DNA of 64,000 bases from an uncultured Bacteroidia bacterium (GCA_943846675.1 OX044357.1:1408500-1472499), one strand, 5' to 3'. Counted from the stretch's first letter, positions 16,253 to 44,433 are shown. The notes: generated from the letters alone by a model not told the origin. Translations and numbers: made by a program.

Positions 16253-17385
16253 AAAGCCTCTCCAATGTGGAAGTAAAATCCCATCCCTTCGGACGTAAAC
16301 GCAACATCAAGACGATTGTAAACGTCCTTTTTAGGAAAAATTAAAAACCTGGGTCCAGCGCCAGCTGCCCATCGCAATGGACTGTTGGTGTAGCTATTAA
16401 CATCTGGGAAAACACTGCCTGCAGCAGCAAACATGGCAAAGCCCCACCGTTTAGCAAAAGAAAAAGGTAACATCCGATATTCTATTTGCCCAGCCAATAA
16501 GTTCTTATCTCTATATCGACCAAGGTAATAACCGCGCATTAAGCGTTCGCCTCCCATCATCGCCAAAGAATTAAAAGGGACATCTCCGTTGGTGAATTGA
16601 CCATATACATGAGTGGCCAAAATATTGTTTTTCTTAATTGGGTGATAGAATCTAAAATCTGTAAACCACTGGTCAAACGAAAAAGTACTTCCCCAAGCTG
16701 TATTGCTTTTCAAATAGGCCACTTCCATGTACTTCCCGTGACGCGGATTTAGAACATTGTGTATGTTGTCGTACAATAGACCCCAACCTAAAGACAAGTT
16801 GGTTGAACCATTGCTTCCGGTAGGAATGCCTATGGCTTGTTGATTTCCATCCCACTCAAAATGCACCCGGCTTAAACGCTGGAAATCGACCTCAAATCCC
16901 GTAAAAACTGATGGCGCGATTTGACGTAGAACGCGCTCTCGAAAACGAAATTCAAACGTGTTAACGACTACTTGCTGGTCAAACGGTCTTTGAGGTCCAA
17001 TGCCAAAATAGTTGATAGGGAAGTTTTGAAACCGGATTTCGCCTAAAAAGAAATACTTGTTTTTATCTGTATACAGCGCATGCTCAATTACTGAACCATA
17101 TTGTTGGGCAAGGGTGAGAAACGAGAAAGACTTCATTTCAGACAGTCGATTCGCGGTATCTTGTTTGGCTCTGTACACGAGCAATCCACTTACACCAACT
17201 TCCCAGCTAGTTTCTGGTGTAAATGCCAGCGTAGGGTAGGCAATAAACTTTGGTTTAGCCGGAGGACTAGTATCCATCAAGGTGTATCTCAAGTATTTTG
17301 CCAATATGTTTTGACTACTTGCGCTTAACGGGAATAAGACGAGAAGTGCAAAGACTATAAAACAGTGTCTTTTGATTATTTCCAT
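16249..17385 (-). CDS. Hypothetical outer-membrane beta-barrel protein
   Basis: Signal peptide; alternating amphipathic beta pattern; C-terminal ...HIGEAF (aromatic terminus). Confidence 0.45.
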
Positions 17386-17918
17386 TTACGGTTGATGATT
17401 TTACCTGCGCGGTTTTTAAAACCGGCGCTCTCTTCGTTAAGGTTTTCAGAAATACTGGCGACCAACTCATCATACAATGCTGGGTATATTTTACTTACAT
17501 TGTAAATGGTGGTCATGGCGAAAACACGAATGGCTATGGCGTTCGATCTGTTTTGCAGATGGCGAAAAGCAATATCTACCACTCGACCTGATTGGTTTTC
17601 ATTGAAGGTTGCATATTGGAACATTCTAAAAATGCAGCGTTTAACGGCGTCATGACGATTTGAATCCAACGCGTCTACTAAGTCGTCGATAAATGGTAGA
17701 ACAAGGTCTCGATTTAAATCCGACATGTGGCGGATTATTTCGGCACATGTTTGGCTCAACCGATCAGTTTCTTCAAGCAAAAAATCAAATAACCAACGCA
17801 CAACCTTTTCATCATTGACATAAGTTGTTGCAAATTCTTGCCAGAAATTTTTATGATAACTAACAGATAGCTGTTCCCTTAATGCGGTTTTAGCCTCTGG
17901 TTCTCTAATGTCAATCAT
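17376..17918 (-). CDS. Hypothetical protein, possibly a HEAT/ARM-like helical repeat
   Basis: 180 aa, helical. I recognise no confident family. Confidence 0.35.
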   Translation of the reverse strand: MIDIREPEAKTALREQLSVSYHKNFWQEFATTYVNDEKVVRWLFDFLLEETDRLSQTCAEIIRHMSDLNRDLVLPFIDDLVDALDSNRHDAVKRCIFRMFQYATFNENQSGRVVDIAFRHLQNRSNAIAIRVFAMTTIYNVSKIYPALYDELVASISENLNEESAGFKNRAGKIINRKWK

Positions 17919-17987
17919 TCAAACGCAGTTTTAGTTCTTTTAAGTAAACCGTGCCATATTTTAAAATACGTTTGTGTTGGTGAGCCA

Positions 17988-18260
17988 CTAATCGTGCACA
18001 ATTTTACATGTTGGACATTCATACCCCGAACTTCCTTTTTGTAAGGTGATGCCTTTTACCCGCTCGACTACAAATTTTTGAATAAAGGAATGGTTGGCCT
18101 CATGGTTGTTGACATCAACTTGTTTGTCTTTATACATTTCACGAATCACGTTGTCGTACTGTTGGTTCCCCCAGCAATTAGGGCATAGGCCTTCTGGGGC
18201 CTCTTTGTCCGTTGACTCACTTTTACTAAAGTATTGTATAAGGTTGGTGATTAGCTGCAT
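17988..18260 (-). CDS. Hypothetical small protein with CPNC...CPTC zinc-ribbon-like cysteines
   Basis: 90-aa ORF with two CxxC pairs. Confidence 0.35.
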   Translation of the reverse strand: MQLITNLIQYFSKSESTDKEAPEGLCPNCWGNQQYDNVIREMYKDKQVDVNNHEANHSFIQKFVVERVKGITLQKGSSGYECPTCKIVHD

Positions 18261-19659: not shown

Positions 19660-22014
19660 TTAGGAAATGTAGCTGAACACGTCTTCGACCTCGCGGCGTA
19701 AAGCCATTATTTCAGGCGAGTTCACTTTCGATAACCGAAAGAAGAAAATATCCTTTTGGTCAGCCTTCAGGTTAGCGAGTTGTTTAAAGCGCTCATATTC
19801 TTGTTTGATACCGGGTCTTAGTTCTTCAATTTGACTAAAATCGTCATCATCTATTCTGGCAAAAAGGAATGATGAAATCGACATGGGTTGTAATGCAATA
19901 TCAAGCTGAGAAGCTGCCAACCAAAGTCGTTGGACGGCTATTCCTGCGTCTAAATAATCCGTATGACTTCTACTGGGCATGGTTAACACACCTAGGCACG
20001 ATGCGGCATCAATGGCCTTTTGCGAAAGCTTGCCAAATTCATTTCCGAGACCCCATTTTTTAATGTGTTTGGTTACGTTCCAGTTTTTCGACAAAATAAG
20101 CCCAGCGCGTTCTGTAGCGGTCAAATCAATTGTGTCGATGTCGATACCGTCTCTGGTAGATTGCACTTCATTTTCATTCCACCGAATTTCTTTAGTGAAA
20201 TGCCCATGACCAATTTTGTTGGTCATAAACAGTTTGTCTATTTCGCCAATAATCGATTTGACCTGCTCCATGTCATCCGGGTCGCTAAACAGTTTCATGT
20301 TTGCTCCTTGGATGGATTGCACTGCTTGCGTTAATAGGTCTTTTTGGTGCTGTGGGATGTTTTTTCGCGGTCCTAGGTTCCTGTTTGTACAACGCTTAAA
20401 CACTTGGTCTATCAAATCTGGGAAAGGATGATGCGGTGTTGTTAGAGGCGAAAAAGAGATGCGTGCGATAAGTTGATTGTCTTCGCCAAGCGGGAAATAT
20501 GCTGATTCGGTTTTGAGTTTTCTTTTCTCTGCGGCAAGGGCAATGTTCTCTAATGCAGCGCCAAAGCTTAATAACGATCCAGTATTGTTATAATTAAGTA
20601 TAGAATTGGATCGCTCAACATCATTAAGCAGTAACAAACTCTCGTTTTTATATACCCAATTCCATGGCTGGACATTTCCGCCAGATGGCGCTTGCACCGC
20701 ATATTTAACGATATCCGCAACCACAGACTCTTCTAGTACTATATTGTTTTGGGTGTCGTGATGAAACAGTTTGTCCTGTGCTAGTTGTAATTCTTCTTTA
20801 TAATCAGATAGGTTAATTTTTGGATTATCTATAGCATAATCATCAAGTTGTTTTTTAAGAATATCATTTTCAACCTCATCATTGATTATTGTTTCAACGT
20901 CGACGATGTATCTACCTGACTTGGTGTATTGATTGAGCAAAATGCGTCTACAAACGTCTGTACAAATACCGCCACCAAAAATGACACCGGAGGCCAGTTG
21001 AGGCCACGTGGTAATGCTGCCTTCAATTTCTAGGATGGAAGCCCGCAGTCTTTCCGATGCGGTATCAATTCCAATCATGGGTAACAAGTACGGTACCTTT
21101 TCTTCGTTGGTTTTTGCTTCTTTGACTTTCGACAGATCTAAGTGATCGATTAGGCCATGAAATATTGGCCAATTAGGATCTAAATCAAAACGTTCTACGT
21201 CTGTCGTTCCTCTATCACTCGAGTTCATCACAACAGGAATACCAAGCTTTTTAGCGACCTGTCTGGTTTGGATTTTGGTAACCAATCCATCACAGACTTC
21301 TATGCATACATCAATGCCTCCATTTACAGCGAAGAAGTCGTGCAAATTTGATTCATCAATGCCCTCATGAAAACATTTAACGTCGAGAAAGGGATCTATT
21401 TCTGCAATTTCTCGCGCAACCACAATCGTCTTTTTGGTATTTAGATTTTGTACCCCAGTTTGAATACGGTTAAGGTTTGATAACTCTATGACGTCAAAAT
21501 CTGCCAGTACCAACGAACCACAAATCCGCTCTGTAGCAATGGTTAAGGCAATAGCCTTGCCCACAGACAAACCAATAATCCCAATGGTTTTCTCATGTAA
21601 AATGGCTTCCTCTTGGGGCGTAATTTTATAATGATTGCGGTTGGTTCTGACTTCAATAAAATCAGGTTCGCTAAGAATGTGAACCAATTTTTCCAGCCAA
21701 GGATAATAGGCCCAAATGCCATATTCCTTTTTGTCTTTGTCCGACAGGTAGTTTACAACTTCTTGGTGCAAAGACGCTTCAGTAAATTTAACCTTAGGAC
21801 TTCTAAGTTTTAATAACTCTAATAATTGACCCTCAATTTCATCAATAATCCGTATATAAGGTTTGGCTTTTAATAGCTCTGTAAGTTCATCAGCATCAGC
21901 AGGTTTGGATAAATTGAAAAGTATAGGCTTGCAAACTAATTGATCATCGTTGGTTACGTTCGTTTCTAGATGTGGCATTTTAAGGGGTTGGTTTGTTGTC
22001 AAAAGGTAAAACAT
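19660..22014 (-). CDS. Rv1355c/MoeY-like fusion: ThiF/MoeB (E1-like) nucleotide-binding domain plus a C-terminal nitroreductase-family domain
   Basis: The E1-like region is IGIIGLSVGKAIALTIATERICGSLVLADFDVIELSNLNRIQ (Rossmann fold plus the D-x-D...SNLNRQ motif). The C-terminal half has nitroreductase-like features (RCTNRNLGP..., ...GGNVQPWNW...). Confidence 0.65.
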   Translation of the reverse strand: MFYLLTTNQPLKMPHLETNVTNDDQLVCKPILFNLSKPADADELTELLKAKPYIRIIDEIEGQLLELLKLRSPKVKFTEASLHQEVVNYLSDKDKKEYGIWAYYPWLEKLVHILSEPDFIEVRTNRNHYKITPQEEAILHEKTIGIIGLSVGKAIALTIATERICGSLVLADFDVIELSNLNRIQTGVQNLNTKKTIVVAREIAEIDPFLDVKCFHEGIDESNLHDFFAVNGGIDVCIEVCDGLVTKIQTRQVAKKLGIPVVMNSSDRGTTDVERFDLDPNWPIFHGLIDHLDLSKVKEAKTNEEKVPYLLPMIGIDTASERLRASILEIEGSITTWPQLASGVIFGGGICTDVCRRILLNQYTKSGRYIVDVETIINDEVENDILKKQLDDYAIDNPKINLSDYKEELQLAQDKLFHHDTQNNIVLEESVVADIVKYAVQAPSGGNVQPWNWVYKNESLLLLNDVERSNSILNYNNTGSLLSFGAALENIALAAEKRKLKTESAYFPLGEDNQLIARISFSPLTTPHHPFPDLIDQVFKRCTNRNLGPRKNIPQHQKDLLTQAVQSIQGANMKLFSDPDDMEQVKSIIGEIDKLFMTNKIGHGHFTKEIRWNENEVQSTRDGIDIDTIDLTATERAGLILSKNWNVTKHIKKWGLGNEFGKLSQKAIDAASCLGVLTMPSRSHTDYLDAGIAVQRLWLAASQLDIALQPMSISSFLFARIDDDDFSQIEELRPGIKQEYERFKQLANLKADQKDIFFFRLSKVNSPEIMALRREVEDVFSYIS

Positions 22015-22372
22015 CTTTTATCGTTATAATGCCAACGACTTGATTGTCTTGAACGATAGGCAGGCAGCCATATTCATTCTTTTTCATAATAGCAATGGCT
22101 TCTGTGATTTCTGTATTTGGAGAAACAGAAACAACATTTGATGCCATGATGTCTTCAACAAGCAAGGTTTTGCCTTTGCCGTCCGCTTGATGTTTTTTCA
22201 TGTGGGTCCAGGTGAGCAAGCCCGATAGCTTTCCGGATCCGTCTTCTACTGGTACGTGATGAATGTTTTTCCAGGCCATAATAGACGTTGCCAAATCGGC
22301 ATGGTCATTATAGTTGACTCTAAACACGTTTGTAGACATAATATGACCAACAAGAAAGGCATCTTCTACCAC
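21980..22372 (-). CDS. CBS domain pair protein
   Basis: Two CBS motifs (IMSTNVFRVNYND..., DIMASNVVSVSPNTEITEAIAIMKKNEYGCLPIV...GIITIKDV). The 3' end overlaps the E1/nitroreductase gene start by about 35 nt. Confidence 0.75.
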   Translation of the reverse strand: MVEDAFLVGHIMSTNVFRVNYNDHADLATSIMAWKNIHHVPVEDGSGKLSGLLTWTHMKKHQADGKGKTLLVEDIMASNVVSVSPNTEITEAIAIMKKNEYGCLPIVQDNQVVGIITIKDVLPFDNKPTP

Positions 22373-22420
22373 ATGTAGGTTTTCTTCTATTGGCCACTTA
22401 TCAACAGGAGTTCCACTGTC

Positions 22421-23851
22421 CTAATTTTTATGCATTGCCTTTGTCAATCGAACAAGGGCGTTGTCACTCTTCATTTTCTTATGGAGCGTACGGTATTGGG
22501 ACGTAATCCATTGGGCACCTGTTTGAGTAAGGGTGCGTCTTTCAATAACACCCAATAGTCGATCAATGTCTTTCTGGTTAATGCCAACCTGCTTTAATCC
22601 TTTTCGAGCTATCGGTAAAAAGGTATTGAGTGTTAAATCGTATGTGCTTCTGATTTCTCCATCCCATCTTAGCATAGATTCTTTCCCATAGCGCGCAGCT
22701 TTTATGAAATTGGCTTTTGCATCGCGAAAGTCCATTTGAGACTCCATATCGTCGTATCTCGAGGGGCGACCAACCATTAAGCCAACCCAGTAGGCAAAAT
22801 TTGCCATCTCATCTAATACGGATGGGCCACTGGGTATATACCTGTTCTCAATGCGTAAATGTGGTTTGCCACCACCTACGCCGTAGCACGGCCGATTCCA
22901 TCGATACAAGGTTCCGTTATTCAAACACAATGCGTCGAGTTTTGGAATGGTCCCTTGGTCTAATTCATCCAATGCATTTTGTTCAATTTCTCGCGCCAAT
23001 AGTATTTTGTGGTTGGCTAAGTCATTTTTAAAAATGTCAGCTGCTGATCCTTTTGACCACTGGTTACCAAAACTAACCCGAGCCTCTTGATTTTTTAAAG
23101 CATAACTGGCGTTTCTGGTATCTATGCTTTGTTGAAACAAAGCAATTCTTGTTTCGCTCCAAAGCTCTCGACCCAACAGAAGTGGAGAATTCGCACTTAT
23201 AGATAACACAGGACCGGTAATGGCTTGGGCCCAATTGTAACTGCTTGTAAAGTCTTTCGGGTCTATTTGTAAATGTAATTGGAAACTGGTGTTACAAGCT
23301 TCAAATAATACAGAATCGTGTGTCACCAACAACTCGTCAACTCCTCTAATTTTGAGTGTAATATCTGATCCACGAGCCTTTTTAATGACCTCATTCATTG
23401 CCCAGTATCGAGGCGATTGGGTCATGTAATCGAACATTAATTCTGACTTACTTATGGTTGGCAAAATGCCGGTAAGCAGAATTTTGGTTTGATTTGCGTC
23501 ACAAACCTTTGTGGCTTTGTCAAGCAAAGACTCTAATTGGTTTTGCATGAGCTCAAAGCAATCTTCTTTGAGGGTAAAGGGGTCGAGGTTTATTTCTAGA
23601 TTATACCGGGCGAGTTCAGTAGTGAAGTGGTCATCATCTATTAGAGGCAATATGTCTTGAGCATTTTTGGCAGGTCGCCAGTGCTTGTCAACTAAACAGA
23701 ACTCTTGCTCCGCGCCAATTCTGGTAATGCCAGTTTCTATAAGATTGTTGTCAATCATGCGTTCTAACGCCTCAATATCATTGAGCAATTGACGAATAAA
23801 CTTTAGACGTGTTTCTCTCGAAACTTGAGTATTTGTTAATTCTTGTCCCAT
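22421..23851 (-). CDS. Glutamate-cysteine ligase family (GCS2 / carboxylate-amine ligase-like) protein
   Basis: 476 aa. The N-terminal RIGAEQEFCLVD resembles the conserved Glu-rich active-site strand of the GCS2/GshA family. This assignment is by motif memory only. Confidence 0.5.
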   Translation of the reverse strand: MGQELTNTQVSRETRLKFIRQLLNDIEALERMIDNNLIETGITRIGAEQEFCLVDKHWRPAKNAQDILPLIDDDHFTTELARYNLEINLDPFTLKEDCFELMQNQLESLLDKATKVCDANQTKILLTGILPTISKSELMFDYMTQSPRYWAMNEVIKKARGSDITLKIRGVDELLVTHDSVLFEACNTSFQLHLQIDPKDFTSSYNWAQAITGPVLSISANSPLLLGRELWSETRIALFQQSIDTRNASYALKNQEARVSFGNQWSKGSAADIFKNDLANHKILLAREIEQNALDELDQGTIPKLDALCLNNGTLYRWNRPCYGVGGGKPHLRIENRYIPSGPSVLDEMANFAYWVGLMVGRPSRYDDMESQMDFRDAKANFIKAARYGKESMLRWDGEIRSTYDLTLNTFLPIARKGLKQVGINQKDIDRLLGVIERRTLTQTGAQWITSQYRTLHKKMKSDNALVRLTKAMHKN

Positions 23852-33776: not shown

Positions 33777-34000
33777 ACACTCTTTTGTGCGCTAAGGCCT
33801 GAACCACATGGGCCAAATGGTGATTGCAGTGCCAAGCGTATAAGCCTATAAAGTGATTTATGGTTAAAGTTGCCTCATGTTCTGGATGAACCAATAGCTT
33901 TTGTAGTTCGTCTGCTGACAAGTGATTTAAAAGGTATGACCACTTTTCATGTAAGCCATCTCTAGTGGTGAGTATGTTTTTTTTATATACATAATGTTTA
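33777..34000 (-). pseudogene. DinB/YfiT-superfamily-like C-terminal fragment lacking an in-frame ATG; a frameshift at an A8 tract restores a Met start
   Basis: The minus-strand frame ...NILTTRDGLHEKWSYLLNHLSADELQKLLVHPEHEATLTINHFIGLYAWHCNHHLAHVVQAL... has a His-rich HxxxHH tail. A +1 A in the aaaaaaaa run at about 33977-33984 would join it to ATG TAT ATA. Confidence 0.25.
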
Positions 34001-34104
34001 ATTCATGGGAATTTACAAAGGCCTACATGTACTTATGTTTATTCCCGCTATAAATGTAGGAAATCCACTTGGGTATCAGTGAAAAAATCAAAAAATCTAA
34101 ACAG

Positions 34105-34343
34105 GATTATTCCTCAAACCTTCGCAAGCTTCGGTTTTCTGTGTTTGTAAGATTTTCTGATTAGAACAATGTCGTTCTAGTAAGTGCTGAGATTTGTTTT
34201 TAATTTGAATAAATGAGAATTTCCGCCAACCGCCAACCGCCAACCGCCAACCTCAATGGTTAACGACATTTTATCCTAAATCAAAAATCATCAGTCAGAA
34301 ATCACCACAAGATTATTCCTCAAACCTTCGCAAGCTCCGGTTT
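34105..34343. repeat. Two ~33-bp direct repeats (gattattcctcaaaccttcgcaagctYcggttt) about 206 bp apart, each preceded by aatcaaaaa(a)tc, flanking a CCGCCAA x4 microsatellite
   Basis: Copies at 34105-34137 and 34311-34343, read directly from the sequence. Confidence 0.8.
34223..34250. repeat. Heptanucleotide tandem repeat (CCGCCAA)4
   Basis: ccgccaaccgccaaccgccaaccgccaa followed by the degenerate cctcaat. Confidence 0.9.
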
Positions 34344-34456
34344 ACGTCAAGATCCTGATAGGCTCCAAATTCCGAAAGCAAAGTTCATCCGCCTTTGGCG
34401 GCTTACTTTTTTGTTCCCTTTCGAAAACTCAAGCGAGCTTGGTTTTCTCTGGAAAC

Positions 34457-34497
34457 AAAAAAGTCCACCAACCGATCGGTTGGTGGACTTTGCTTTC
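34457..34497. terminator. Strong GC-rich perfect palindrome flanked by A and T runs (bidirectional terminator-like)
   Basis: aaaaaa-gtccaccaaccgatcggttggtggac-tttgcttt, a 26-bp palindrome at 34463-34488. Confidence 0.6.
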
Positions 34498-34563
34498 TTA
34501 GTGACCTTGGCAGGACAGAGTTCAAACTTTTTTGAGGATTTTAAGTTATTTAATAATTATGTA

Positions 34564-34941
34564 GGTTCTGTCGCACCTATTAGACAAGAATTTAAAAGTA
34601 CAATTATTTTTTAATTCTAAGCGGCCAATGACATGAACGATTTAAACATAGTTTTATCTTGACCAATCAACTGATTTTTCTTAATCATTCTGACAATTTC
34701 AATTCCTGATAAGGTTCTTCTAGCAGATTCAAATTCTTTAAATCCCAAACCTTGCTGAATTCGCCATTTGATAAAACGGTGATCTTGTTCGGTTCTGTCG
34801 CATCTGACTATTTTATTCCTTTTCTTTATCAAAAATGGAATCAGATAAATAATTAAAGTGCTGATTTTCAATTGAATTTATTTTATGACATTTGAATTTT
34901 ATCAGTTTAAATCGGTTAAATTTGGTAGATGCGACAGAACC
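34564..34941. mobile_element. Internally deleted IS6-family insertion-sequence remnant (MITE-like, ~378 bp) with terminal inverted repeats
   Basis: Left end GGTTCTGTCGCAC (34564-34576) and right end GTGCGACAGAACC-like (34930-34941) are inverted copies and resemble the IS6-family IR consensus GGTTCTGTTGCAAAGT. They enclose only a truncated transposase C-terminus. Confidence 0.5.
34617..34871 (-). pseudogene. Truncated IS6-family transposase (C-terminal ~50 aa only)
   Basis: ...DRTEQDHRFIKWRIQQGLGFKEFESARRTLSGIEIVRMIKKNQL matches the conserved IS6/IS26-type transposase C-terminal block (NxIEQDHRxIKxRxxxMxGFKSFxSAxxTLxGIExxxMIRKGQ). Confidence 0.5.
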
Positions 34942-35006
34942 CAAGCGTTGGCTTGTGTGAATTGCAAATGTGCTTGCGGCTACCTTTTTTAAGTTAATCA
35001 ATTATT

Positions 35007-36236
35007 TCACTTTTTTACTATTCTTGATAAGTATACCAATGGTTTTACAATAAGTAAATAGCTAAACTTCTTTAAAACGAAACTTTTATCAATAACCTTT
35101 GCTGCCTTTTCGCCATAATGGTAATACCATTTAACGAAACTTTCTCCCCAGTTTTTTGTTAAAATCCATTCATCTCGGAAATAACGTAATTCCATCACTT
35201 GTGGGTCGTCATAGCTGCCCATTGCTGCGGTTGCTATAAAACAAAAAGACTTATTACCGCATTCATGGCACACTCCTCTTTTCGCCTTTTTTGCTTTAAC
35301 GGTCATTGGGAGGCCGCATTTATCACATTTAACTGGCCGGTGGATACGGAGAAAAAATCGTTTAAAATATGAATTAGTACTAATGTTATCCCAATTTAAA
35401 GCTTTTAGGTTTATGAGGGTGTTTACTTTCAAAGAGATTATTATAAAATTTTTTTCTAGTAATGCAGGGTTTAATTTGAAAAAATCAAAAACTTTAGAAG
35501 AAATATTACTAACAGATTCCGAATCCGTTGTCAAGGTTAAACCACCATATGTAAATGATATTATTTGTTTATACACCTGTTCATTTGTAATTTTAATTTC
35601 AGCATCATTAAGAATAATGGATTTTTCAACAGAAGTTTGAGGAACTTCAAAAAAACTTTCTATTTTATTTAAAGGGTTACCTGATAAATCAATCTTTATT
35701 AGATAGTTAAAAGTATCATTTACATTTATCACAGAGACTTCGTTATTTGAAAGATTAATCTCCATAACATTAGGGAATAAAGCTAAATCTGATAAATCAT
35801 TAATTTTATTATTGCTAACATCTAAGAACCTTACCATTTCTAGTTCTGTATCACTAAACCAATCCGCTAGTTCAGAAATACTGATAAGTCCTTTATTTGT
35901 AACTTTTAATAAACCTGCACCTCCTGAGTAATCCGATTCAATATCATCTCTAAAAAATTTAGATGGTCTATTTTTAAAATGAACTATCCATCCATCATCA
36001 ACTCTAACTTTGTTATGTAGCTCAGAAAAATTAGGAACAGTTGATATTTTCTTTTCTTTTGGAGGTACTATGTGAGGTTTTGACTTTATTCTGCTTACAT
36101 GTTCTGTTTGAATTGACTTTCTTTTTATTGATGGAGTGCTTATCAAGTTAGAACAAAATTCACATTTCACATTAGATTGACCATCTTCATAAACGTTAGC
36201 AGCGCCACAACTGGTGCATGAAATTGACTTACTCAT
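35007..36236 (-). CDS. Zinc-ribbon plus leucine-rich-repeat protein with a second CxxC...CxxC pair and a conserved C-terminal module (paralog B)
   Basis: N-terminal CTSCGAANVY...CEFCSNL zinc ribbon. LRR units (LDVSNNKINDLSDLALFPNVMEINLSNNEVSVINVN...IDLSGNPLNKIE). CDKCG...CHECG, then FCFIATAAMGSYDDPQVMELRYFRDEWIL...LVYLSRIVKK. Confidence 0.6.
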   Translation of the reverse strand: MSKSISCTSCGAANVYEDGQSNVKCEFCSNLISTPSIKRKSIQTEHVSRIKSKPHIVPPKEKKISTVPNFSELHNKVRVDDGWIVHFKNRPSKFFRDDIESDYSGGAGLLKVTNKGLISISELADWFSDTELEMVRFLDVSNNKINDLSDLALFPNVMEINLSNNEVSVINVNDTFNYLIKIDLSGNPLNKIESFFEVPQTSVEKSIILNDAEIKITNEQVYKQIISFTYGGLTLTTDSESVSNISSKVFDFFKLNPALLEKNFIIISLKVNTLINLKALNWDNISTNSYFKRFFLRIHRPVKCDKCGLPMTVKAKKAKRGVCHECGNKSFCFIATAAMGSYDDPQVMELRYFRDEWILTKNWGESFVKWYYHYGEKAAKVIDKSFVLKKFSYLLIVKPLVYLSRIVKK

Positions 36237-36449
36237 TTCAATTTTTAAATTTGGTTATTTTTTTTAAATCTGTTATTTCCTTCAATAAGGTATCGCCTTC
36301 TTCTAAGTGTTTAAATAGCAATACTTTCAAGTTCCTTTAACATACTTCAAAGTGCTGTAAAAAACCCTTCTATCTCATAGTTTTTATTAGCTCTTTTTTT
36401 AATGACTTCAAGTGATTCTTCAATAAATTTTCTTATTTCTTCCATAATT

Positions 36450-37697
36450 TTACTTTTTTACTATTCTTGATAAGTATACTAATGGTTTCACAATAAGTAA
36501 ATAGCTAAACTTCTTTAAGATGTAACTTTTTTCAATGAACTTAGCAGCAATTGCTCCATAATGGTAATACCATTTAACAAAACTTTCACCCCAACTTTTT
36601 TGTAAAATCCATTCATCACGAAAATGACGTAACTCCATGACCTGAGGATGGTCATAACTGCCCATGGTGGCAGTTGCAATAAAGCAAAAAGAAGTTTCTT
36701 TATCTTTAAATGAGGTGCTATATTTTTTCAAATATGCTTCCTTAAGTTGGGAGAAATTGCCCGTCCTTATCTTTATTTCGTGATTACTCCCTTTTGAGTC
36801 AATAATATTCATTTTAAAAAGGATCTTATTTTCAAAATCCTTGGCCTTTAGGTAATTCCCGCTTTTCATTCGAATAAGAGGACCGTAATTAATTTTAGAC
36901 AACAAATCTGGTGAACCATCTGGGTATTTGTTTTTAAGTTTACGTATTGTGTCAGATAAATCAACAGGGTTGTCTGTAAAGTCTAAATTAACGCTGATAC
37001 CATCAATAATTAACACCTCTAATGCAACAAAATCAATCGTTTGTATTTTATTCTTTGACAGATCTATTTGCAGTATATTCTGTATTTTCCAATAATTAGT
37101 ATCAATTATTGTGTTTATATTGAAGGTAGTAATTAAGTTCTCTGATAAGTCTAATTTTTTTAATTCATTCGATTTTATGTTAAAATTAGTAGAGGTAATT
37201 TCATTATTTTTGAGAATTAATCTCTCAAGATTAATTAAATGAGAAATATCATAAGAGTCACTAAGTTTATTGTTCGAAAGATCTAGAAATCTGATACTTT
37301 GAAGTTCAGTATCGGTATACCAATCGAATAAGTCTTCAAATGCTTGTAAGTTCTTCCTCGTTAAAAGAAGTTCACCTCCCCCATTAGAATAATCAAATAC
37401 AATTTTATCTTGAACAAACTTAGAAGGTTTGTTTTTGAAATGAGCAATCCAACCATTGTCAACCCTAACAAGATTATGAGGTTCACCAAAATTGGGAGGG
37501 TTTGATGATTTTTTCTGCCTAGGCTTTGTAATTTCGGGTTTTGTTTTTAGGCGACTTTCTCCTCCATTTTTTATAGCTTTAGTTTCATTGATGGGAATAT
37601 TTATTACACTACCACAAAAATCACATTTAACTGATGATTCCCCCGATTCATAGATATTTGCCCCACCACAACTTTGACAGTTAATTGCTCTACTCAT
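36450..37697 (-). CDS. Zinc-ribbon plus leucine-rich-repeat protein sharing the N-terminal ribbon and the C-terminal module with 35007..36236 (paralog A)
   Basis: CQSCGGANIY...CDFCGSV, LRRs (LDLSNNKLSDSYDISHLINLERLILKNNEITS...LDLSENLIT...IDLSKNKIQTID). The C-terminal FCFIATATMGSYDHPQVMELRHFRDEWIL...LVYLSRIVKK is near-identical to the paralog. Confidence 0.6.
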   Translation of the reverse strand: MSRAINCQSCGGANIYESGESSVKCDFCGSVINIPINETKAIKNGGESRLKTKPEITKPRQKKSSNPPNFGEPHNLVRVDNGWIAHFKNKPSKFVQDKIVFDYSNGGGELLLTRKNLQAFEDLFDWYTDTELQSIRFLDLSNNKLSDSYDISHLINLERLILKNNEITSTNFNIKSNELKKLDLSENLITTFNINTIIDTNYWKIQNILQIDLSKNKIQTIDFVALEVLIIDGISVNLDFTDNPVDLSDTIRKLKNKYPDGSPDLLSKINYGPLIRMKSGNYLKAKDFENKILFKMNIIDSKGSNHEIKIRTGNFSQLKEAYLKKYSTSFKDKETSFCFIATATMGSYDHPQVMELRHFRDEWILQKSWGESFVKWYYHYGAIAAKFIEKSYILKKFSYLLIVKPLVYLSRIVKK

Positions 37698-38148
37698 TTT
37701 TATCGTTTTTAAATTGGATAAACATTTTTTTTGCTAATTTTTCAAAACTTACCTTTTCACCTTCGATCAGGATATATGTGTTTTGGTTAAAGGGTTTTAA
37801 TTTTTCTAACTCATTATTTACTTCTTCTACCTTGCCTAGCAATAGAAAACATTGAAAAATACCGTAATGACATTTTGCTGCGGTTTTTCCAAATTCATTT
37901 CCGCTGTCTAATGCAGAAATTGTTGCATCAGGATAATTAGTAATTACTTGATTGAATGTTTCAATTGCTTGCTCGAACTGTTTTATTTTAAAGTAGCAAA
38001 GACCAACATTATATAATGCATCATCAGCTAAATCACTTTGAGGGTATTCATCAATTAACATTTTGAATTTGTTGATTGAATCAAGATAAAATTCATCTTT
38101 AGCAAGATTAAGTCCTTCTGTAAAATACTGTATTTCGTTATCGTGCAT
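37690..38148 (-). CDS. Tetratricopeptide-repeat (TPR) protein
   Basis: 152 aa with about three TPR-like units (ADDALYNVGLCYFKIKQFEQAIETFNQVITNYPD...). The stop overlaps the start of the LRR gene. Confidence 0.55.
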   Translation of the reverse strand: MHDNEIQYFTEGLNLAKDEFYLDSINKFKMLIDEYPQSDLADDALYNVGLCYFKIKQFEQAIETFNQVITNYPDATISALDSGNEFGKTAAKCHYGIFQCFLLLGKVEEVNNELEKLKPFNQNTYILIEGEKVSFEKLAKKMFIQFKNDKNE

Positions 38149-38500
38149 TTCGTTTGTTTTTTTGTTCTTGTTTATAATCGGATGCCGAAAAAGTTTCGGC
38201 TTTAGAAACTTTCAAAATATATGTTGCTCCACCTAAAAGTAAAGCAAGTGCGACACCAAATCCTGTATCGTACCAAACTTGTTTGTAACAGATATAGCCA
38301 CCTACAATTAAAATAGAACTGAATAGAAATACAGCTACTTTACCGTTAATAGATGAAATAAAAGCGATAGGCAGAAATAAAATAATAAAAGCTATAATGA
38401 TTTGAGCAAACGAACGGTCAGTTTCAAAAGCATAAATTAATATCCCACAACTTAAACCTGCTAATAGTATTCCGATAATTGTACTTGCTATTTTACTCAT
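38138..38500 (-). CDS. Small integral membrane protein (3-4 TM helices)
   Basis: 120 aa, almost entirely hydrophobic helices, with a basic C-terminal tail. Coupled to its neighbours by overlapping start and stop codons. Confidence 0.5.
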   Translation of the reverse strand: MSKIASTIIGILLAGLSCGILIYAFETDRSFAQIIIAFIILFLPIAFISSINGKVAVFLFSSILIVGGYICYKQVWYDTGFGVALALLLGGATYILKVSKAETFSASDYKQEQKNKRNAR

Positions 38501-39483
38501 TATAAGTTGTTTAAAATTCGTTTTTTAGTTTCGTTAAACTCTTCTTGGTCAATGGCTCCCATATCCAATAACTCTTTAAGTTTTTTCAATTTTGAAAAAG
38601 AGTCTTCTTCTGTATCTGCTGATTGATTATTCTGTTGCATAGCTTGATTCATCATTTGTGGAATCATAAACCCCATACCCATACCTGCTCCGAGCCCCAT
38701 TCCTTCACCAGCATTTCCTGTAGGATTTTCTGCCGCCTTTTCCATTGATTGTCCCATTTGAAACTTCATAAAATCGTCCATATTTCCGACAGCAGACATT
38801 CCTGAGCGAGTGTCAATCATTTTTTGAACTTCTGGTGGAACTGAAACAGAATTAATTAAGAAATCATGTAATTCTAAACCCAGCCCTTCAAAATCAAGAT
38901 TTAAGCTGTTTTTTATTAAAATTGATAGGTTATCAAAATGTTGCGGTAAGTCGAATACTGTTTTCACATGTTGTCCGAGAGTAACGTTCAGTTTTTGAAG
39001 AATGATTGATTTTAAGTAATCCGAAATGTCGGAATCTCGAAAAACACCTTGTGTACCAACAACTTTATTTAGAAATAACGAAGGTTCTTTTATTGTAATG
39101 GAAAATGCTCCATAACTCCTCAACCTTATCATTTTCAATTCAGAATCTCTAAATAAGATTGGCTCTTTTGTTCCCCACTTTAAGTTTCGAAACAACTTCA
39201 TGTTAAGGAAATAAACCTCAGATTTGAATGGAGAGTCTTTTCCGTAACCTAATGAAGTTATTAATTTGGTTAAAATTGGAATGTTTTGAGTTTTTAAAAC
39301 ATGTCTACCAGCACTAAAAACATCTAATGATTTTCCATCTCTGAAAAAGACAGCCTTTTGACTTTCTCGAACAATGAGTTGAGCACCCATTTTAAATTCA
39401 CCACTACTATCTTCTGGTACTCTTTGCACCATAGAGTCTCCTGTGTTATCAAGGTATTCTATTATTTCCATTAGTTTTCCCAT
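38500..39483 (-). CDS. SPFH/band-7-like protein of the YdjI (COG4260, 'virion core protein'-annotated) type with a C-terminal SHOCT domain
   Basis: Architecture and blocks (GTKEPILF..., ...HDFLINSVSVPPEVQKMIDTRSGMSAVG) parallel Bacillus YdjI. A Gly/Met-rich linker leads to FSKLKKLKELLDMGAIDQEEFNETKKRIL, the SHOCT motif. Confidence 0.65.
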   Translation of the reverse strand: MGKLMEIIEYLDNTGDSMVQRVPEDSSGEFKMGAQLIVRESQKAVFFRDGKSLDVFSAGRHVLKTQNIPILTKLITSLGYGKDSPFKSEVYFLNMKLFRNLKWGTKEPILFRDSELKMIRLRSYGAFSITIKEPSLFLNKVVGTQGVFRDSDISDYLKSIILQKLNVTLGQHVKTVFDLPQHFDNLSILIKNSLNLDFEGLGLELHDFLINSVSVPPEVQKMIDTRSGMSAVGNMDDFMKFQMGQSMEKAAENPTGNAGEGMGLGAGMGMGFMIPQMMNQAMQQNNQSADTEEDSFSKLKKLKELLDMGAIDQEEFNETKKRILNNL

Positions 39484-39484
39484 C

Positions 39485-39934
39485 TTACAAATCTTTTAAG
39501 TACTGGTTTCTTTTATTAATTGAGTTTTCAAGTGATTGAATATGTTGTTTCGTATTCTCTAAATTCGTAGCTGCTAGTCCTTCTTGCAAATTTTCTGTAG
39601 CATCAAAAATGTCTAAATCCATTTGATAGATATTTTCAAGTTCCTCATTTTTAATTACTGAGTCTGAAAAAAAAGCAGAAGCCCCATAAGGTGAATACTT
39701 TATTAAATCTTTCAGATTATTGATTTTCTTCCTCACTTTTTCAATTTCAGCTAACTCAGATAATTCAGAAACTTCAATTAATGAATTGATAATTTTTTCT
39801 GTTTCAGAAAGCTTATCTGCAATTTGTTCTCTTAATTGTCGGTCGCATTCTCTTCTGCTGTCTCTTTCTTGATAACCTTTATAACCAGGTATCAATGTTC
39901 CGATTTTGTCAAATATGTTTGTTTTTCTATTCAT
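39485..39934 (-). CDS. Hypothetical coiled-coil protein, first gene of the operon
   Basis: 149 aa, highly charged with helical heptad character. The weak N-terminal IFDKIGTLI resembles PspA/Vipp1 starts, but I cannot establish that. Confidence 0.4.
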   Translation of the reverse strand: MNRKTNIFDKIGTLIPGYKGYQERDSRRECDRQLREQIADKLSETEKIINSLIEVSELSELAEIEKVRKKINNLKDLIKYSPYGASAFFSDSVIKNEELENIYQMDLDIFDATENLQEGLAATNLENTKQHIQSLENSINKRNQYLKDL

Positions 39935-40092
39935 ATTTATCAGTTATGTAAGCGTTGTCAAAAAAGCAATGTGTGCGCAGCACTCTTTGCTTTGTGCGGT
40001 GTTACCACATAAGTGCCTGCACCTCTTTGATAATAAATAATAAAATGTTTTGCAGCCATAGAGTTATTTTGTAAGTCTTCAAACACAAGCTC

Positions 40093-40115
40093 AAAATGCA
40101 GCCAATCTGCATTTT
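40093..40115. promoter_or_regulatory. Perfect 9-bp inverted repeat with a 5-bp spacer (aaaatgcag-ccaat-ctgcatttt) in the promoter region of the island operon; candidate operator
   Basis: Read directly. It lies between the XRE regulator gene end (40171) and the operon start (39934). Confidence 0.45.
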
Positions 40116-40170
40116 CGATTTAACAGGTATGTTTGTGCAGAATCAATAATTATTTTCATTAAAATTTAAT

Positions 40171-40362
40171 CTATCTACTTGAAACAATTAAATCTTTTAT
40201 ATCTACATCTATAATCTCAGCGATTTCATTCAAAATCTCCAATCGGGGTTGTTGTCTGTTTTGTACATAGCCGTTCACCATATTATAACTTTTATCTAAC
40301 TCTTCAGCTAGCCAAGTTTGCTTGATACCCTTTTCTTCTAGTACTTCTTTTATTCTGTTCAT
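40171..40362 (-). CDS. XRE-family (Cro/CI-type) helix-turn-helix transcriptional regulator
   Basis: 63 aa with the HTH_3 pattern IKQTWLAEELDKSYNMVNGYVQNRQQPRLEILNEIAEII. Confidence 0.8.
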   Translation of the reverse strand: MNRIKEVLEEKGIKQTWLAEELDKSYNMVNGYVQNRQQPRLEILNEIAEIIDVDIKDLIVSSR

Positions 40363-40453
40363 GATAATTTGAAATTCAATATCTAAAATAGATATTATAT
40401 ATTGAAAAACAAGATGTAAAAGACACTTATTTCAATACCTGTTAAATCGAAAA

Positions 40454-40510
40454 ACGTCGTTTGAACACAAATTACGACGTACAACGACGTTTAACGGCAT
40501 TCGACGTCGT
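40454..40510. promoter_or_regulatory. Cluster of at least four palindromic heptamers ACG(A/T)CGT upstream of the XRE gene; candidate operator or iteron array
   Basis: acgtcgt (40454), acgacgt (40474), acgacgt (40484), cgacgtcgt (40502). Confidence 0.45.
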
Positions 40511-40557
40511 ATTAAGGTTGTTTTTTTTTGAAAATGGAAAAGAGAGGTTACATGAAA

Positions 40558-40592
40558 AATAAAAAAAGGTCATGCAGTTTTCCTTGACCTTT
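40558..40592 (-). terminator. Rho-independent terminator (minus-strand sense)
   Basis: The minus strand reads aaaggtca-aggaaaactgca-tgaccttt followed by ttttttt; an 8-bp stem plus T-run downstream of the 40640-40962 small genes. Confidence 0.6.
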
Positions 40593-40758
40593 AGACCTGA
40601 ATAATGAAACTAAAAGAGTACAGATTATTTACATTCCCATATCCTTAAAATCTCCTATCAGTATTTTACTTAATCTTAACAAGGCAGTAACCCCTGCAAC
40701 AATAATTACTGCTCCAATCATTGTCTTAACTATTTTCTGAATCTCTTCATTAGAAGAT

Positions 40759-40962
40759 TTAGTCTTTTCCGTTTTCATTTTCTTTAGGTTTAATTTTAAT
40801 ACTATTCTGTTGTGCTCTTCTCGTAACGGCTGCGGAAACTGCTACTCCTATGAGTAGAACTCCGCCGACGATTATGAATTTTAACCAAGGATTTGATCCT
40901 GGTTGTGAATTTGTCCCCGAATTAAATCCGGGTAAGTTTTCTATTGGTGTTGGTACATTCAT
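40759..40962 (-). CDS. Small hypothetical membrane protein
   Basis: 67 aa with one TM (KFIIVGGVLLIGVAVSAAV). A 49-aa TM ORF in another frame (about 40640-40787) overlaps it. Which is real is unclear. Confidence 0.35.
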   Translation of the reverse strand: MNVPTPIENLPGFNSGTNSQPGSNPWLKFIIVGGVLLIGVAVSAAVTRRAQQNSIKIKPKENENGKD

Positions 40963-41402
40963 CGTTTTTTAATTTTTATTTTAAGAACTTCATTTCTCGC
41001 GTATATGCGATACATATATCTATAAGTAATATGATACTCTTTTTCATTATGGTTAATTCTTCCGATGTGATAACCAGATTTGAAACCATCAGCTTTAAGG
41101 ACATCATAAAACCTTTCAATTTCATCCTGTCTCTTCTCGCTATTAAAATGTCTTTCTAGAACGTTGTCATTCTTCAGTAGTATTTTTTCATCTCTTATTC
41201 TGTGTCTATTCTTGGACTTTCTCTTTCCGTGGTTGTAAGCAAAGTCAGCATGCTGCTTGTTTAAATAAATATTATCACTTCTACTAGGATAGAATGAATA
41301 GCCGCAACCACATTCACATTCTCTAGCGGAAATCGGTCTTGGTAGAGGTGTGCTTCCCTTAGGATCTAGTATTTCTTCTATTTCTATATTGTTTGGCTCC
41401 AT
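40959..41402 (-). CDS. Hypothetical protein
   Basis: 147-aa ORF with a CECGCG motif and no confident family. Confidence 0.35.
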   Translation of the reverse strand: MEPNNIEIEEILDPKGSTPLPRPISARECECGCGYSFYPSRSDNIYLNKQHADFAYNHGKRKSKNRHRIRDEKILLKNDNVLERHFNSEKRQDEIERFYDVLKADGFKSGYHIGRINHNEKEYHITYRYMYRIYARNEVLKIKIKKR

Positions 41403-41451
41403 TGTAATGAAAATATTACTATATTTGACAAATATAATAATTATTACGCAT

Positions 41452-42402
41452 ATGTCAGAACGAATAAATATTTTAAATCAGGAAGAGTTGGAGTACCTCA
41501 ACAGTTCTGAATATAAATTCGAATATCCAGGTCTTAGAAATGCTATGGACGTTCCCAGATTTACAATAAGTGATTTAGGGGTTACGGCAAGAGATGCAAC
41601 GTATTGGTCAAAGAAAGAAATTCTGCCTGAAGTCAAAGGCGGAAATACAACAAGGAGAAAATATACTTTAAAGCAAGCTCTATGGATAAAGCTAATTCAG
41701 CAACTAAGGTCTTTTGATATTTCACTTAACCAAATCAAAAAAATAAAGGATCATTTATTAACCTCAGATGTTAATATAAAGGAGCTGATGGAAAATGAGC
41801 AAGTGAATATTATACTCGAAAGATTGGTTGATAAAGATGGTCAGCTTGAAGAATATAAAAAATTAATGAAAGACCCTTCTTTTCTTAAAGAATTAGAAGG
41901 CCAAAATCTTGATGTTTTTGAGATGATGGTATTATATACAATTATATTCAGAAGGGATGTAAGCTACATAGTGACAGTCGATGGTTATGGCCTCCCATAT
42001 GTCTTTGATAAACATGAGATCATGAAAAAGAACTTTCCGGAGTTCGAGTTATTAATGAAAAGCCCTCATATCGTCCTTTCATTATCTCAAGCATATAGTC
42101 AGTTAATCCAGGATTGGAGTGAGAAAAAATGGTTTAATGAAGTGTCTATTGTTTCAAAGGATGAGAAAAAAATACTTGGTCTGATGCGGGATAAAACGAC
42201 CAAAGAATTGAGAATAATGAAGAATAAGGATGAGATAGACAGAGTAATCCTTATTAAGGACAAATCCATTAACGCCATAGAAGAGTTTGCTAATCACATC
42301 GTAAGAAACGGTTATCAGACAATTACGATTAGCACACGTCAAGGCAAGCCGGTCCATTTCAAAAATGAAGTATCTATTAAACTAAAGAACATACCGGAAT
42401 AA
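41452..42402 (+). CDS. Hypothetical protein with an N-terminal MerR/excisionase-type HTH
   Basis: Internal ATG at 41452 (MSERIN...). RFTISDLGVTARDATYWSKKEIL resembles the HTH_17/excisionase-like DNA-binding helix. It sits adjacent to the recombinase. Confidence 0.4.
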   Translation: MSERINILNQEELEYLNSSEYKFEYPGLRNAMDVPRFTISDLGVTARDATYWSKKEILPEVKGGNTTRRKYTLKQALWIKLIQQLRSFDISLNQIKKIKDHLLTSDVNIKELMENEQVNIILERLVDKDGQLEEYKKLMKDPSFLKELEGQNLDVFEMMVLYTIIFRRDVSYIVTVDGYGLPYVFDKHEIMKKNFPEFELLMKSPHIVLSLSQAYSQLIQDWSEKKWFNEVSIVSKDEKKILGLMRDKTTKELRIMKNKDEIDRVILIKDKSINAIEEFANHIVRNGYQTITISTRQGKPVHFKNEVSIKLKNIPE

Positions 42403-42639
42403 CCGGACAATTGATCTCCGCTTTCAGCACCGAAGAACGGACGTAAAGCACATGGGGAATAAATGTGAAAACAACTAACCAAATTAAAAGTGAACTTACA
42501 AATGATAAAAGAACACTAGAAAAAAGAAGAGAGGTAAAAGAGAAATTAAAAGTGCTTGGTGAAACAGAAGAGAACACCGAACGAATACTCACGTCAATTG
42601 AGTGTTATTGTCAACTGGTGTTGCAATCAATAAAAAAGA

Positions 42640-44238: not shown

Positions 44239-44277
44239 TCCGTAGTCAGATACTCTATTCAGTTGAGCTACAGGGCC
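44204..44277 (-). tRNA. tRNA-Arg (anticodon ACG)
   Basis: Hand-folded. Acceptor GGCCCTG/CAGGGTC with one G-U pair, D-arm GCTC/GAGT, anticodon stem TCTGA/TCAGA with loop CTACGGA (U33, ACG), T-arm CCAGG-TTTGAAT-CCTGG, discriminator A. No CCA is encoded. Confidence 0.7.
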
Positions 44278-44433
44278 GATTAAGGGGTGCAAAGATAAAA
44301 CGGTTTATATAATTATCTAACGTTTTTGTCCATTTGATTTAATTTTATGCCTTATCGTAAAATTCATATAACAATTCGATTTAGATTGATTATAATGTGA
44401 TGCCTTCTATATCTTTGTTAGCAATCCGAAAAA

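Follow-up and report, generated by a model that had tools for sequence, protein, structure and literature searches.

Whether three adjacent open reading frames (ORFs) serve one pathway, or are neighbours only in one bacterial lineage, is the question raised by positions 19660-23851 of a 64-kb stretch of DNA from an uncultured Bacteroidia bacterium (the window hereafter, meaning the whole stretch). This locus carries three ORFs, all on the minus strand: one for a 784-aa protein that fuses an E1-like ThiF domain to a flavin-dependent oxidase (FDO) domain of the nitroreductase superfamily (ThiF-FDO), one for a CBS-pair protein, and one for a 476-aa protein of the GCS2 type. A previous interpretation, made from the sequence alone (the sequence-only reading), had joined them in one modification pathway, possibly leading to a thiol cofactor or to an azoline resembling those of RiPPs (peptides made on ribosomes and modified after translation). 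The analysis presented here indicates that the locus probably consists of two independent units, a TrzS/OxzB-type oxazolone synthase and a split GCS2-CBS ligase, which became neighbours in a single lineage and are probably co-transcribed. The apparent three-gene pathway could be regarded, then, as a lineage-specific juxtaposition combined with a split gene, and its "MoeY-type" protein can now be placed in a family whose chemistry was solved between 2021 and 2025.

Known chemistry of the ThiF-FDO family

The mycobacterial protein Rv1355c (MoeY), to which the sequence-only reading compared the fusion and whose function it gave as unknown, has since been described as TrzS, the N-acyl tryptazolone synthase (PMC12856293, JBC, Dec 2025). 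TrzS carries out the ATP-dependent cyclisation, followed by the O2-dependent desaturation, of N-acyl tryptophan to N-acyl tryptazolone, using a substrate that the acyltransferase TrzA (Rv1356c) supplies; the D217A substitution abolishes its cyclase activity and R540A its desaturase activity (PMC12856293). The same logic of N-acylation, cyclase and oxidase is followed by TyzACB (PMC10404671) and by OxzAB of Pseudoalteromonas rubra (bioRxiv 10.1101/2020.06.11.147165; reviewed in PMC12596934). Together, TrzS, OxzB and TyzBC define a class of ATP-dependent cyclase/FMN oxidases by which N-acyl amino acids are turned into oxazolones (PMC12856293; PMC10404671; bioRxiv 10.1101/2020.06.11.147165). The idea of an E1-like, flavin-dependent route to a heterocycle in the absence of YcaO came close to this chemistry, which has been shown to take an N-acyl amino acid to an oxazolone through ATP-dependent cyclodehydration and FMN/O2 desaturation (PMC12856293; bioRxiv 10.1101/2020.06.11.147165), but the RiPP azoline or thiol pathway attached to that idea did not stand.

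A full-length member of the Rv1355c family

The ThiF-FDO gene occupies positions 19660..22014 of the minus strand when read from its first ATG. Pfam detects in its product a ThiF domain (PF00899; 56.2 bits; aa 139-321 of the 784-aa form, positions 21052..21600, minus strand) and a Nitroreductase domain (38.6 bits), as the sequence-only reading had proposed. The NCBIfam model NF005901, "Rv1355c family protein", covers the protein practically end to end (residues 21-779 against model positions 4-717 of 722) with 735.7 bits versus a cut-off of 476, which bears out the Rv1355c-like architecture. By sequence homology, the 784-aa protein is a full-length ThiF-nitroreductase fusion of this family. 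Its C-terminal domain (aa ~435-779, positions 19678..20712, minus strand) is an Acg-like flavin-dependent oxidase according to the Acg-family FMN oxidoreductase model NF047509 (126.9 bits). A profile built from the window protein and 15 homologues gave consistent results against the PDB, with Acg (2YMV, E 1.7e-9) as the best match of the C-terminal half, and with TcdA (4D7A, E 8e-7) as the nearest structure to the N-terminal half, where ThiF (1ZFN) was also found. A relatedness of the two TrzS domains to TcdA/ThiF and to Acg is likewise given in PMC12856293.

The residues expected at the two active sites are kept. In the 16 homologues aligned, window protein included, D160/D162 (D-x-D), N-L-N-R171, K183 and C-D230-G of the ThiF domain are invariant and align with the ATP-site motifs of TcdA and ThiF, and the conserved Asp would correspond to D217 of TrzS and D127 of ThiF. 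The R-x-T-N-R motif (R529/N532/R533) of the oxidase domain is also invariant in this set and aligns with A-R-R-T-D-R of Acg. The window protein thus resembles TrzS of M. tuberculosis and M. smegmatis in its N-terminal ThiF-like ATP-dependent cyclase and C-terminal Acg-like FMN oxidase, in its full-length match to the model named after Rv1355c, and in its ATP-site Asp and FMN-site Arg motifs. It differs in that its gene lacks an adjoining TrzA-type N-acyltransferase and in that the host belongs to the Bacteroidota instead of being a mycolic-acid actinomycete. OxzB of P. rubra, which turns N-acyl-Tyr/Phe into tyrazolones or phenazolones, shares the ThiF-nitroreductase di-domain, but falls in FDO subcluster A8 whereas Rv1355c falls in A4 (PMC10404671), and the acyltransferase neighbour of the OxzAB pair is again missing beside the window gene. 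As for TcdA (CsdL), the tRNA t6A cyclodehydratase, its structure is the solved one closest in sequence to the window ThiF domain, and it also performs an ATP-dependent, ThiF-like cyclisation of an N-acylated amino acid moiety, whose product was originally described as an oxazolone (PMC12596934); however, its substrate is tRNA, an oxidase domain is missing and the similarity is only distant.

Following the steps demonstrated for TrzS and OxzB, and to judge from the full-length homology and the conserved residues, the ThiF domain of the window protein would use ATP/Mg to adenylate an N-acyl amino acid at its alpha-carboxylate. Closure of the 5(4H)-oxazolone ring by the amide oxygen would follow, and the Acg-like FMN domain would then desaturate the C-alpha/C-beta bond with O2.

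A different activity is implied by the legacy name MoeY, that of a MoeB/ThiF-type adenylyltransferase which activates a sulfur-carrier protein used in making molybdopterin or thiamine. The MoeB and ThiF equivalog models do recognise the window protein weakly (38-65 bits), but with scores far under the 152-376 bits set as cut-offs; among solved structures the cyclodehydratase TcdA is the nearest relative, and the activity characterised for the family is that of a cyclase (PMC12856293). A sulfur carrier, or a precursor peptide, had been suggested as something to look for nearby. No ThiS/MoaD domain was present in the 50 window ORFs of at least 120 aa scanned with Pfam, and no small ORF ending in GG was found between 16 and 29 kb. 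There is, in consequence, next to no likelihood that the protein works as a MoeY in the old sense.

A ligase gene cut by a stop codon

The 476-aa ORF (22421..23851, minus strand) lies on the same strand as the fusion gene, as had been claimed, but upstream of it and not after it, the order on the minus strand being GCS2, CBS and ThiF-FDO. Its match to the GCS2 family (PF04107) is marginal, with 23.2 bits versus a cut-off of 21, and is confined to the N-terminal third. An AlphaFold2 model obtained with a 42-sequence alignment (pLDDT 75.8, pTM 0.82) retrieved with Foldseek YbdK (1R8G, 3.9e-8; also 1TT4), the plant glutamate-cysteine ligase (GCL; 2GWC, 1.8e-7) and the yeast GCL (3IG5), the matches having E values of 4e-8 to 8e-7, TM values of 0.52-0.60 and 12-14% identity. 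When the PDB was searched by sequence with a GCS2-CBS profile, the CBS part alone found matches, so the ligase fold comes from structure prediction. The protein is consequently predicted, in agreement with the sequence-only reading, to be a GCS2-fold carboxylate-amine ligase. It shares its fold with YbdK and plant-type GCL, and the invariant acidic, Arg and His residues that it retains would be typical of a metal/ATP site. It differs from them in its low identity, in an ancestral fusion to a CBS pair and in its pairing with an AstE/AspA-type deacylase, and the model of the YbdK subfamily itself (TIGR02050) gave it 15.4 bits versus a cut-off of 176.4.

The CBS-pair ORF (21980..22372, minus strand) was correctly recognised from the beginning, with two CBS stretches and 88.2 bits in Pfam. 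However, it does not constitute a gene separate from that of the ligase. Both ORFs share one frame and are separated by a lone TAG (22421..22423, minus strand), at whose position three relatives, with 92%, 73% and about 71% identity, have CAA (Gln) within a continuous GCS2-CBS protein of 620-627 aa, and the window CBS ORF aligns to the C-termini of the fused proteins of L083, L081 and L004. Because the frame is common and the in-frame TAG stands where the relatives have CAA, the two ORFs are best read as pieces of one ancestral gene, and the CBS ORF as the former C-terminal domain of a GCS2-CBS protein, now separate from it. Among more than 8000 homologues of GCS2-CBS, with about 60-66% identity across Bacteroidota, the best 120 are almost all of ~615-630 aa and contain both parts, and in 80 metagenome loci retrieved with the GCS2 domain the CBS part follows directly in 75, the remaining five stopping at a contig edge. 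GCS2-CBS is thus predicted to be a widespread ATP-dependent carboxylate-amine ligase of Bacteroidota with a C-terminal CBS-pair regulatory domain, whose single polypeptide of ~620 aa is interrupted by the TAG in the window.

Two trivial explanations for the TAG were discarded. A sequencing error is ruled out by the 476-aa product, which is identical on 41 contigs and is present in 77 collection blocks, including a 3.07-Mb contig, and recoding or read-through is ruled out by the use of TAG as the stop codon of 8 of the 36 long ORFs of the window. Downstream of the stop, the CBS piece keeps its reading frame intact, with a ratio of non-synonymous to synonymous substitutions (dN/dS) of 0.06 against an 85%-identical lineage, a value obtained with saturated dS and averaging both lineages; for the GCS2 domain the ratio is 0.021. 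Gene callers start the CBS ORF at the ATG at 22339 (119 aa; L165, L167 and L168).

The overlap between the CBS and ThiF-FDO genes noted in the sequence-only reading exists only if the first ATG of the latter is used. In the database, the protein nearest to ThiF-FDO (P0001, with 100% identity) is called from the ATG at 21978, one base past the CBS stop, which gives 772 aa, and the homologues align from this same codon. The ATG at 21978 is therefore the probable start, and the overlap of 35 nt is probably not real. A scan for promoters and terminators between 18 and 26 kb gave counts not above those of shuffled sequences, Bacteroidota promoters being outside the models of the scan.

The usual genomic company of the two genes

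The genomic context of ThiF-FDO was analyzed in 80 Bacteroidota loci (L001-L080), taken from one genome per species and harbouring relatives with 39-70% identity, in Flavobacteriales, Pedobacter, Mucilaginibacter, Dyadobacter and Chitinophagales among other taxa. Neighbours were obtained by clustering all ORFs of the loci, and denominators of 79 and 72 refer to those loci with enough room for the gene in question. A GNAT protein of ~241 aa is encoded immediately downstream of ThiF-FDO in 75/79 loci, and a 7TMR-DISM histidine kinase of ~718 aa follows in 69/72. CheY-type receiver genes (~155 aa) were found in 72/80 loci, upstream and divergent where inspected, and a receiver-kinase hybrid was detected by Pfam in 59/80. 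Examples of such canonical ThiF-FDO/GNAT/kinase clusters, all outside the window, are L001:9311-16550, L025:8873-16633 and L066:9116-16659. In one locus (L015:4025-7045) ThiF-FDO and GNAT are part of a single triple-fusion protein of 1006 aa (P0097), in which the GNAT profile recognises residues 767-996 (1e-99), and which offers Rosetta-stone support for a link between synthase and cyclase.

The AlphaFold2 model of the partner GNAT (pLDDT 87.9) has as best structural matches the N-acyl amino acid synthase FeeM (2G0B) and BjaI (5W8A/C), the two proteins to which TyzA was likewise reported to be structurally closest (PMC10404671). The partner GNAT is thus predicted to be a FeeM/BjaI-like N-acyl amino acid synthase. 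Because it shares the nearest structural neighbours of TyzA and adjoins ThiF-FDO, the canonical Bacteroidota context can be read as an OxzAB/TrzAS-like oxazolone gene pair together with a two-component system. These loci are similar to those of oxzB homologues, most of which are accompanied by an N-acyltransferase oxzA (bioRxiv 10.1101/2020.06.11.147165), but the Bacteroidota clusters add the 7TMR-DISM kinase and the response regulators. No published description of a Bacteroidota oxazolone/7TMR-DISM kinase cluster was found in a literature search. The conserved association of a FeeM-like synthase, ThiF-FDO, a sensor kinase of this class and response regulators suggests that oxazolones may be sensed as signals, which would be the first genomic hint of this kind in the literature compared. 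Since the canonical cluster is present in culturable genera such as Pedobacter, Mucilaginibacter and Dyadobacter, the idea can be tested.

None of these canonical partners (GNAT, kinase and others) is present in the 64-kb window, as searched with hmmsearch --max (best E 0.17-0.8), and the partner-GNAT profile, run against the window translated in six frames, found no match (best E 0.39); the Pfam scan of the 50 longer ORFs gave no GNAT/N-acyl amino acid synthase domain either. An adjoining N-acyl amino acid synthase is a trait of the gene cluster and not of the enzyme family. Two further ThiF-FDO genes without GNAT and kinase neighbours were observed (L039:513-2828 and L053:2829-5153), one of them in a metagenome-assembled genome labelled Blastocatellia. 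Given these two cases, orphan copies of ThiF-FDO arise repeatedly.

A different company was found for GCS2-CBS. In the metagenome loci of the reverse scan, a gene of ~400 aa of the AstE/AspA family (PF24827) lies directly downstream of GCS2-CBS in 56 of the 60 loci with room for it, as exemplified by L096:10001-13053 and L123:10001-13052 (from L086-L164), and is partly visible in 12 further loci. GCS2-CBS and AstE/AspA would therefore form a large conserved ligase/deacylase pair, about which nothing was found in a literature search. The window has no AstE/AspA partner (best E 0.31), and in the window lineage its slot after GCS2-CBS is taken by ThiF-FDO.

Regarding the linkage between the two units, GCS2 was found near ThiF-FDO in only one of the 80 Bacteroidota loci by tBLASTn with the window neighbours (L004, 70% identity, which has the whole gene order of the window), and ThiF-FDO near GCS2-CBS in only one of the 80 metagenome loci (L085, from the window's own lineage). 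As the adjacency occurs once in each direction and both exceptions come from the lineage of the window, ThiF-FDO and GCS2-CBS do not form a conserved system, and their proximity is limited to one narrow Flavobacteriales lineage. The synteny on which the one-pathway proposal depended is thus missing, each gene having a different and strongly conserved set of partners elsewhere. This result also bears on the particular version of that proposal, a dedicated three-ORF route to a thiol cofactor or RiPP-like azoline through E1-like activation. The domains are indeed those that had been described, and a ligase with the GCL fold would be compatible with gamma-glutamyl-thiol chemistry. However, besides the lack of synteny, the YbdK model stays far under its cut-off, no GG-ending ORF lies in the 16-29 kb interval, and the ThiF-FDO family has been shown experimentally to make oxazolones from small N-acyl amino acids. 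YcaO is absent from the 50 ORFs scanned, which agrees with what the sequence-only reading had noticed and removes a usual component of azoline routes. A pathway of this kind is very unlikely.

A derived context under purifying selection

Neighbour-joining of 82 ThiF-FDO proteins nests the clade of the window (the window, L083, L081 and L085) within GNAT-linked Flavobacteriales sequences, as sister to L001, L002, L003 and L010. Because the clade lies inside GNAT-linked clades, the orphan context of the window gene is derived. The ancestor of the gene would have sat in a standard Bacteroidota cluster and would have been relocated in the window lineage, where the partners are absent. In the case of the second unit, the GCS2-CBS ligase is normally paired with the AstE/AspA-type deacylase, and the TAG has cut the window copy into a 476-aa catalytic piece and the CBS ORF.

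Could the relocated ThiF-FDO be a stranded remnant without current function, on its way to being lost after parting from its synthase and its sensor? The partner genes are missing from the window, the neighbouring GCS2-CBS has already been hit by a nonsense mutation, and in some assemblies of the same species ThiF-FDO is split into 576 + 220 aa (e.g. L168:4001-6356). Against this stand a dN/dS of 0.046 over 772 codons in the comparison with the 85%-identical L083, and the retention, in four diverged members of the window clade, of all catalytic positions and of 118 of the 119 columns with a conservation of 95% or more, the lone change being a conservative E118D. What splits the variant is one A inserted into a homopolymer (A6 -> A7, position 1650 of the gene), a change typical of assembly errors, and 36 contigs carry the intact 784-aa protein in identical form. 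The insertion is probably an assembly error, phase variation being possible, and pseudogenisation as deduced from the split variants was ruled out by this cause. That the gene is a mere remnant is thus quite unlikely. Because purifying selection is strong and 118/119 conserved positions are kept, the window ThiF-FDO is probably a working oxazolone synthase of the TrzS/OxzB type, as predicted from its sequence. Neofunctionalisation through clade-specific substitutions was also considered, and the only change found was E118D.

The whole region of ~20 kb is collinear across the window lineage, with genes for a CarboxypepD_reg protein, an ABC exporter, GCS2-CBS, ThiF-FDO, an MscS-like channel, two small hypothetical proteins and an Omp85-like protein in this order. 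Since the region is collinear as a whole, the persistence of the GCS2-CBS/ThiF-FDO adjacency in this lineage is not specific evidence for a coupling between them. The two small conserved hypothetical genes (17376-18260), encoding a 90-aa protein with two CxxC pairs and a 180-aa protein, have no family match, and every relative of the lineage retains them downstream of the MscS-like gene.

Two independent units or a new operon

Several observations weigh against a locus of two independent units. The adjacency is tight, with gaps of 0-20 nt or an overlap, and on a common strand in all members of the lineage, and it is kept across ~70-100% protein identity. ThiF-FDO sits exactly in the AstE/AspA slot, and the two kinds of enzyme have N-acyl amino acids as substrates. 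On the 3,066,831-bp contig of the species, that of 3.07 Mb mentioned above, neither a cognate GNAT-type N-acyl amino acid synthase nor a second ThiF-FDO copy was found among the top 120 matches of each search, an indirect result. An oxazolone synthase held by strong selection in a place where no cognate synthase is seen must receive its substrate from another enzyme, which raises the question of the source of that substrate. Moreover, the activity of the Bacteroidota members of both families is a prediction. A newly acquired functional link between GCS2 and ThiF-FDO is accordingly possible.

The most elaborate form of such a link would be a new operon born after recombination, in which the GCS2 ligase replaces the acyl-CoA-dependent synthase and makes an N-acylated or gamma-glutamylated amino acid that ThiF-FDO cyclises and desaturates, the latter having taken the place of the AstE/AspA deacylase, the usual consumer of what the ligase makes. 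The spacing, the exchange of one enzyme of N-acyl amino acids for another, the missing synthase and second copy, and the strong purifying selection on ThiF-FDO would all fit. However, the adjacency occurs in a single lineage where ~20 kb are collinear, so its conservation says little. The clade shows no changes at conserved positions of the kind expected from a switch of substrate (1/119, a conservative E to D), and active-site conservation is unchanged in both enzymes. In the window species the ligase has lost its CBS domain to the nonsense codon, and GCS2-CBS remains about 62-66% identical to its many homologues without a nearby ThiF-FDO, which argues for an unchanged function. We would grant this new operon a small chance. 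If it existed, it would be the first ligase-fed oxazolone pathway and would reveal the substrate class of the large GCS2-CBS family. In any case, two independent units, an orphan oxazolone synthase and a split ligase, are the probable content of the locus.

Other features of the window

Elsewhere in the window, positions 34000-44300 form a low-GC stretch (0.30-0.35, compared with ~0.40 in the rest) that encodes SPFH/Band7-SHOCT, TPR, LRR and MerR-like proteins, together with several ORFs without a family. The stretch ends at a large serine recombinase (42640-44238) overlapping a tRNA-Arg(acg) gene (44203-44277, minus strand), and is probably an integrated mobile element.

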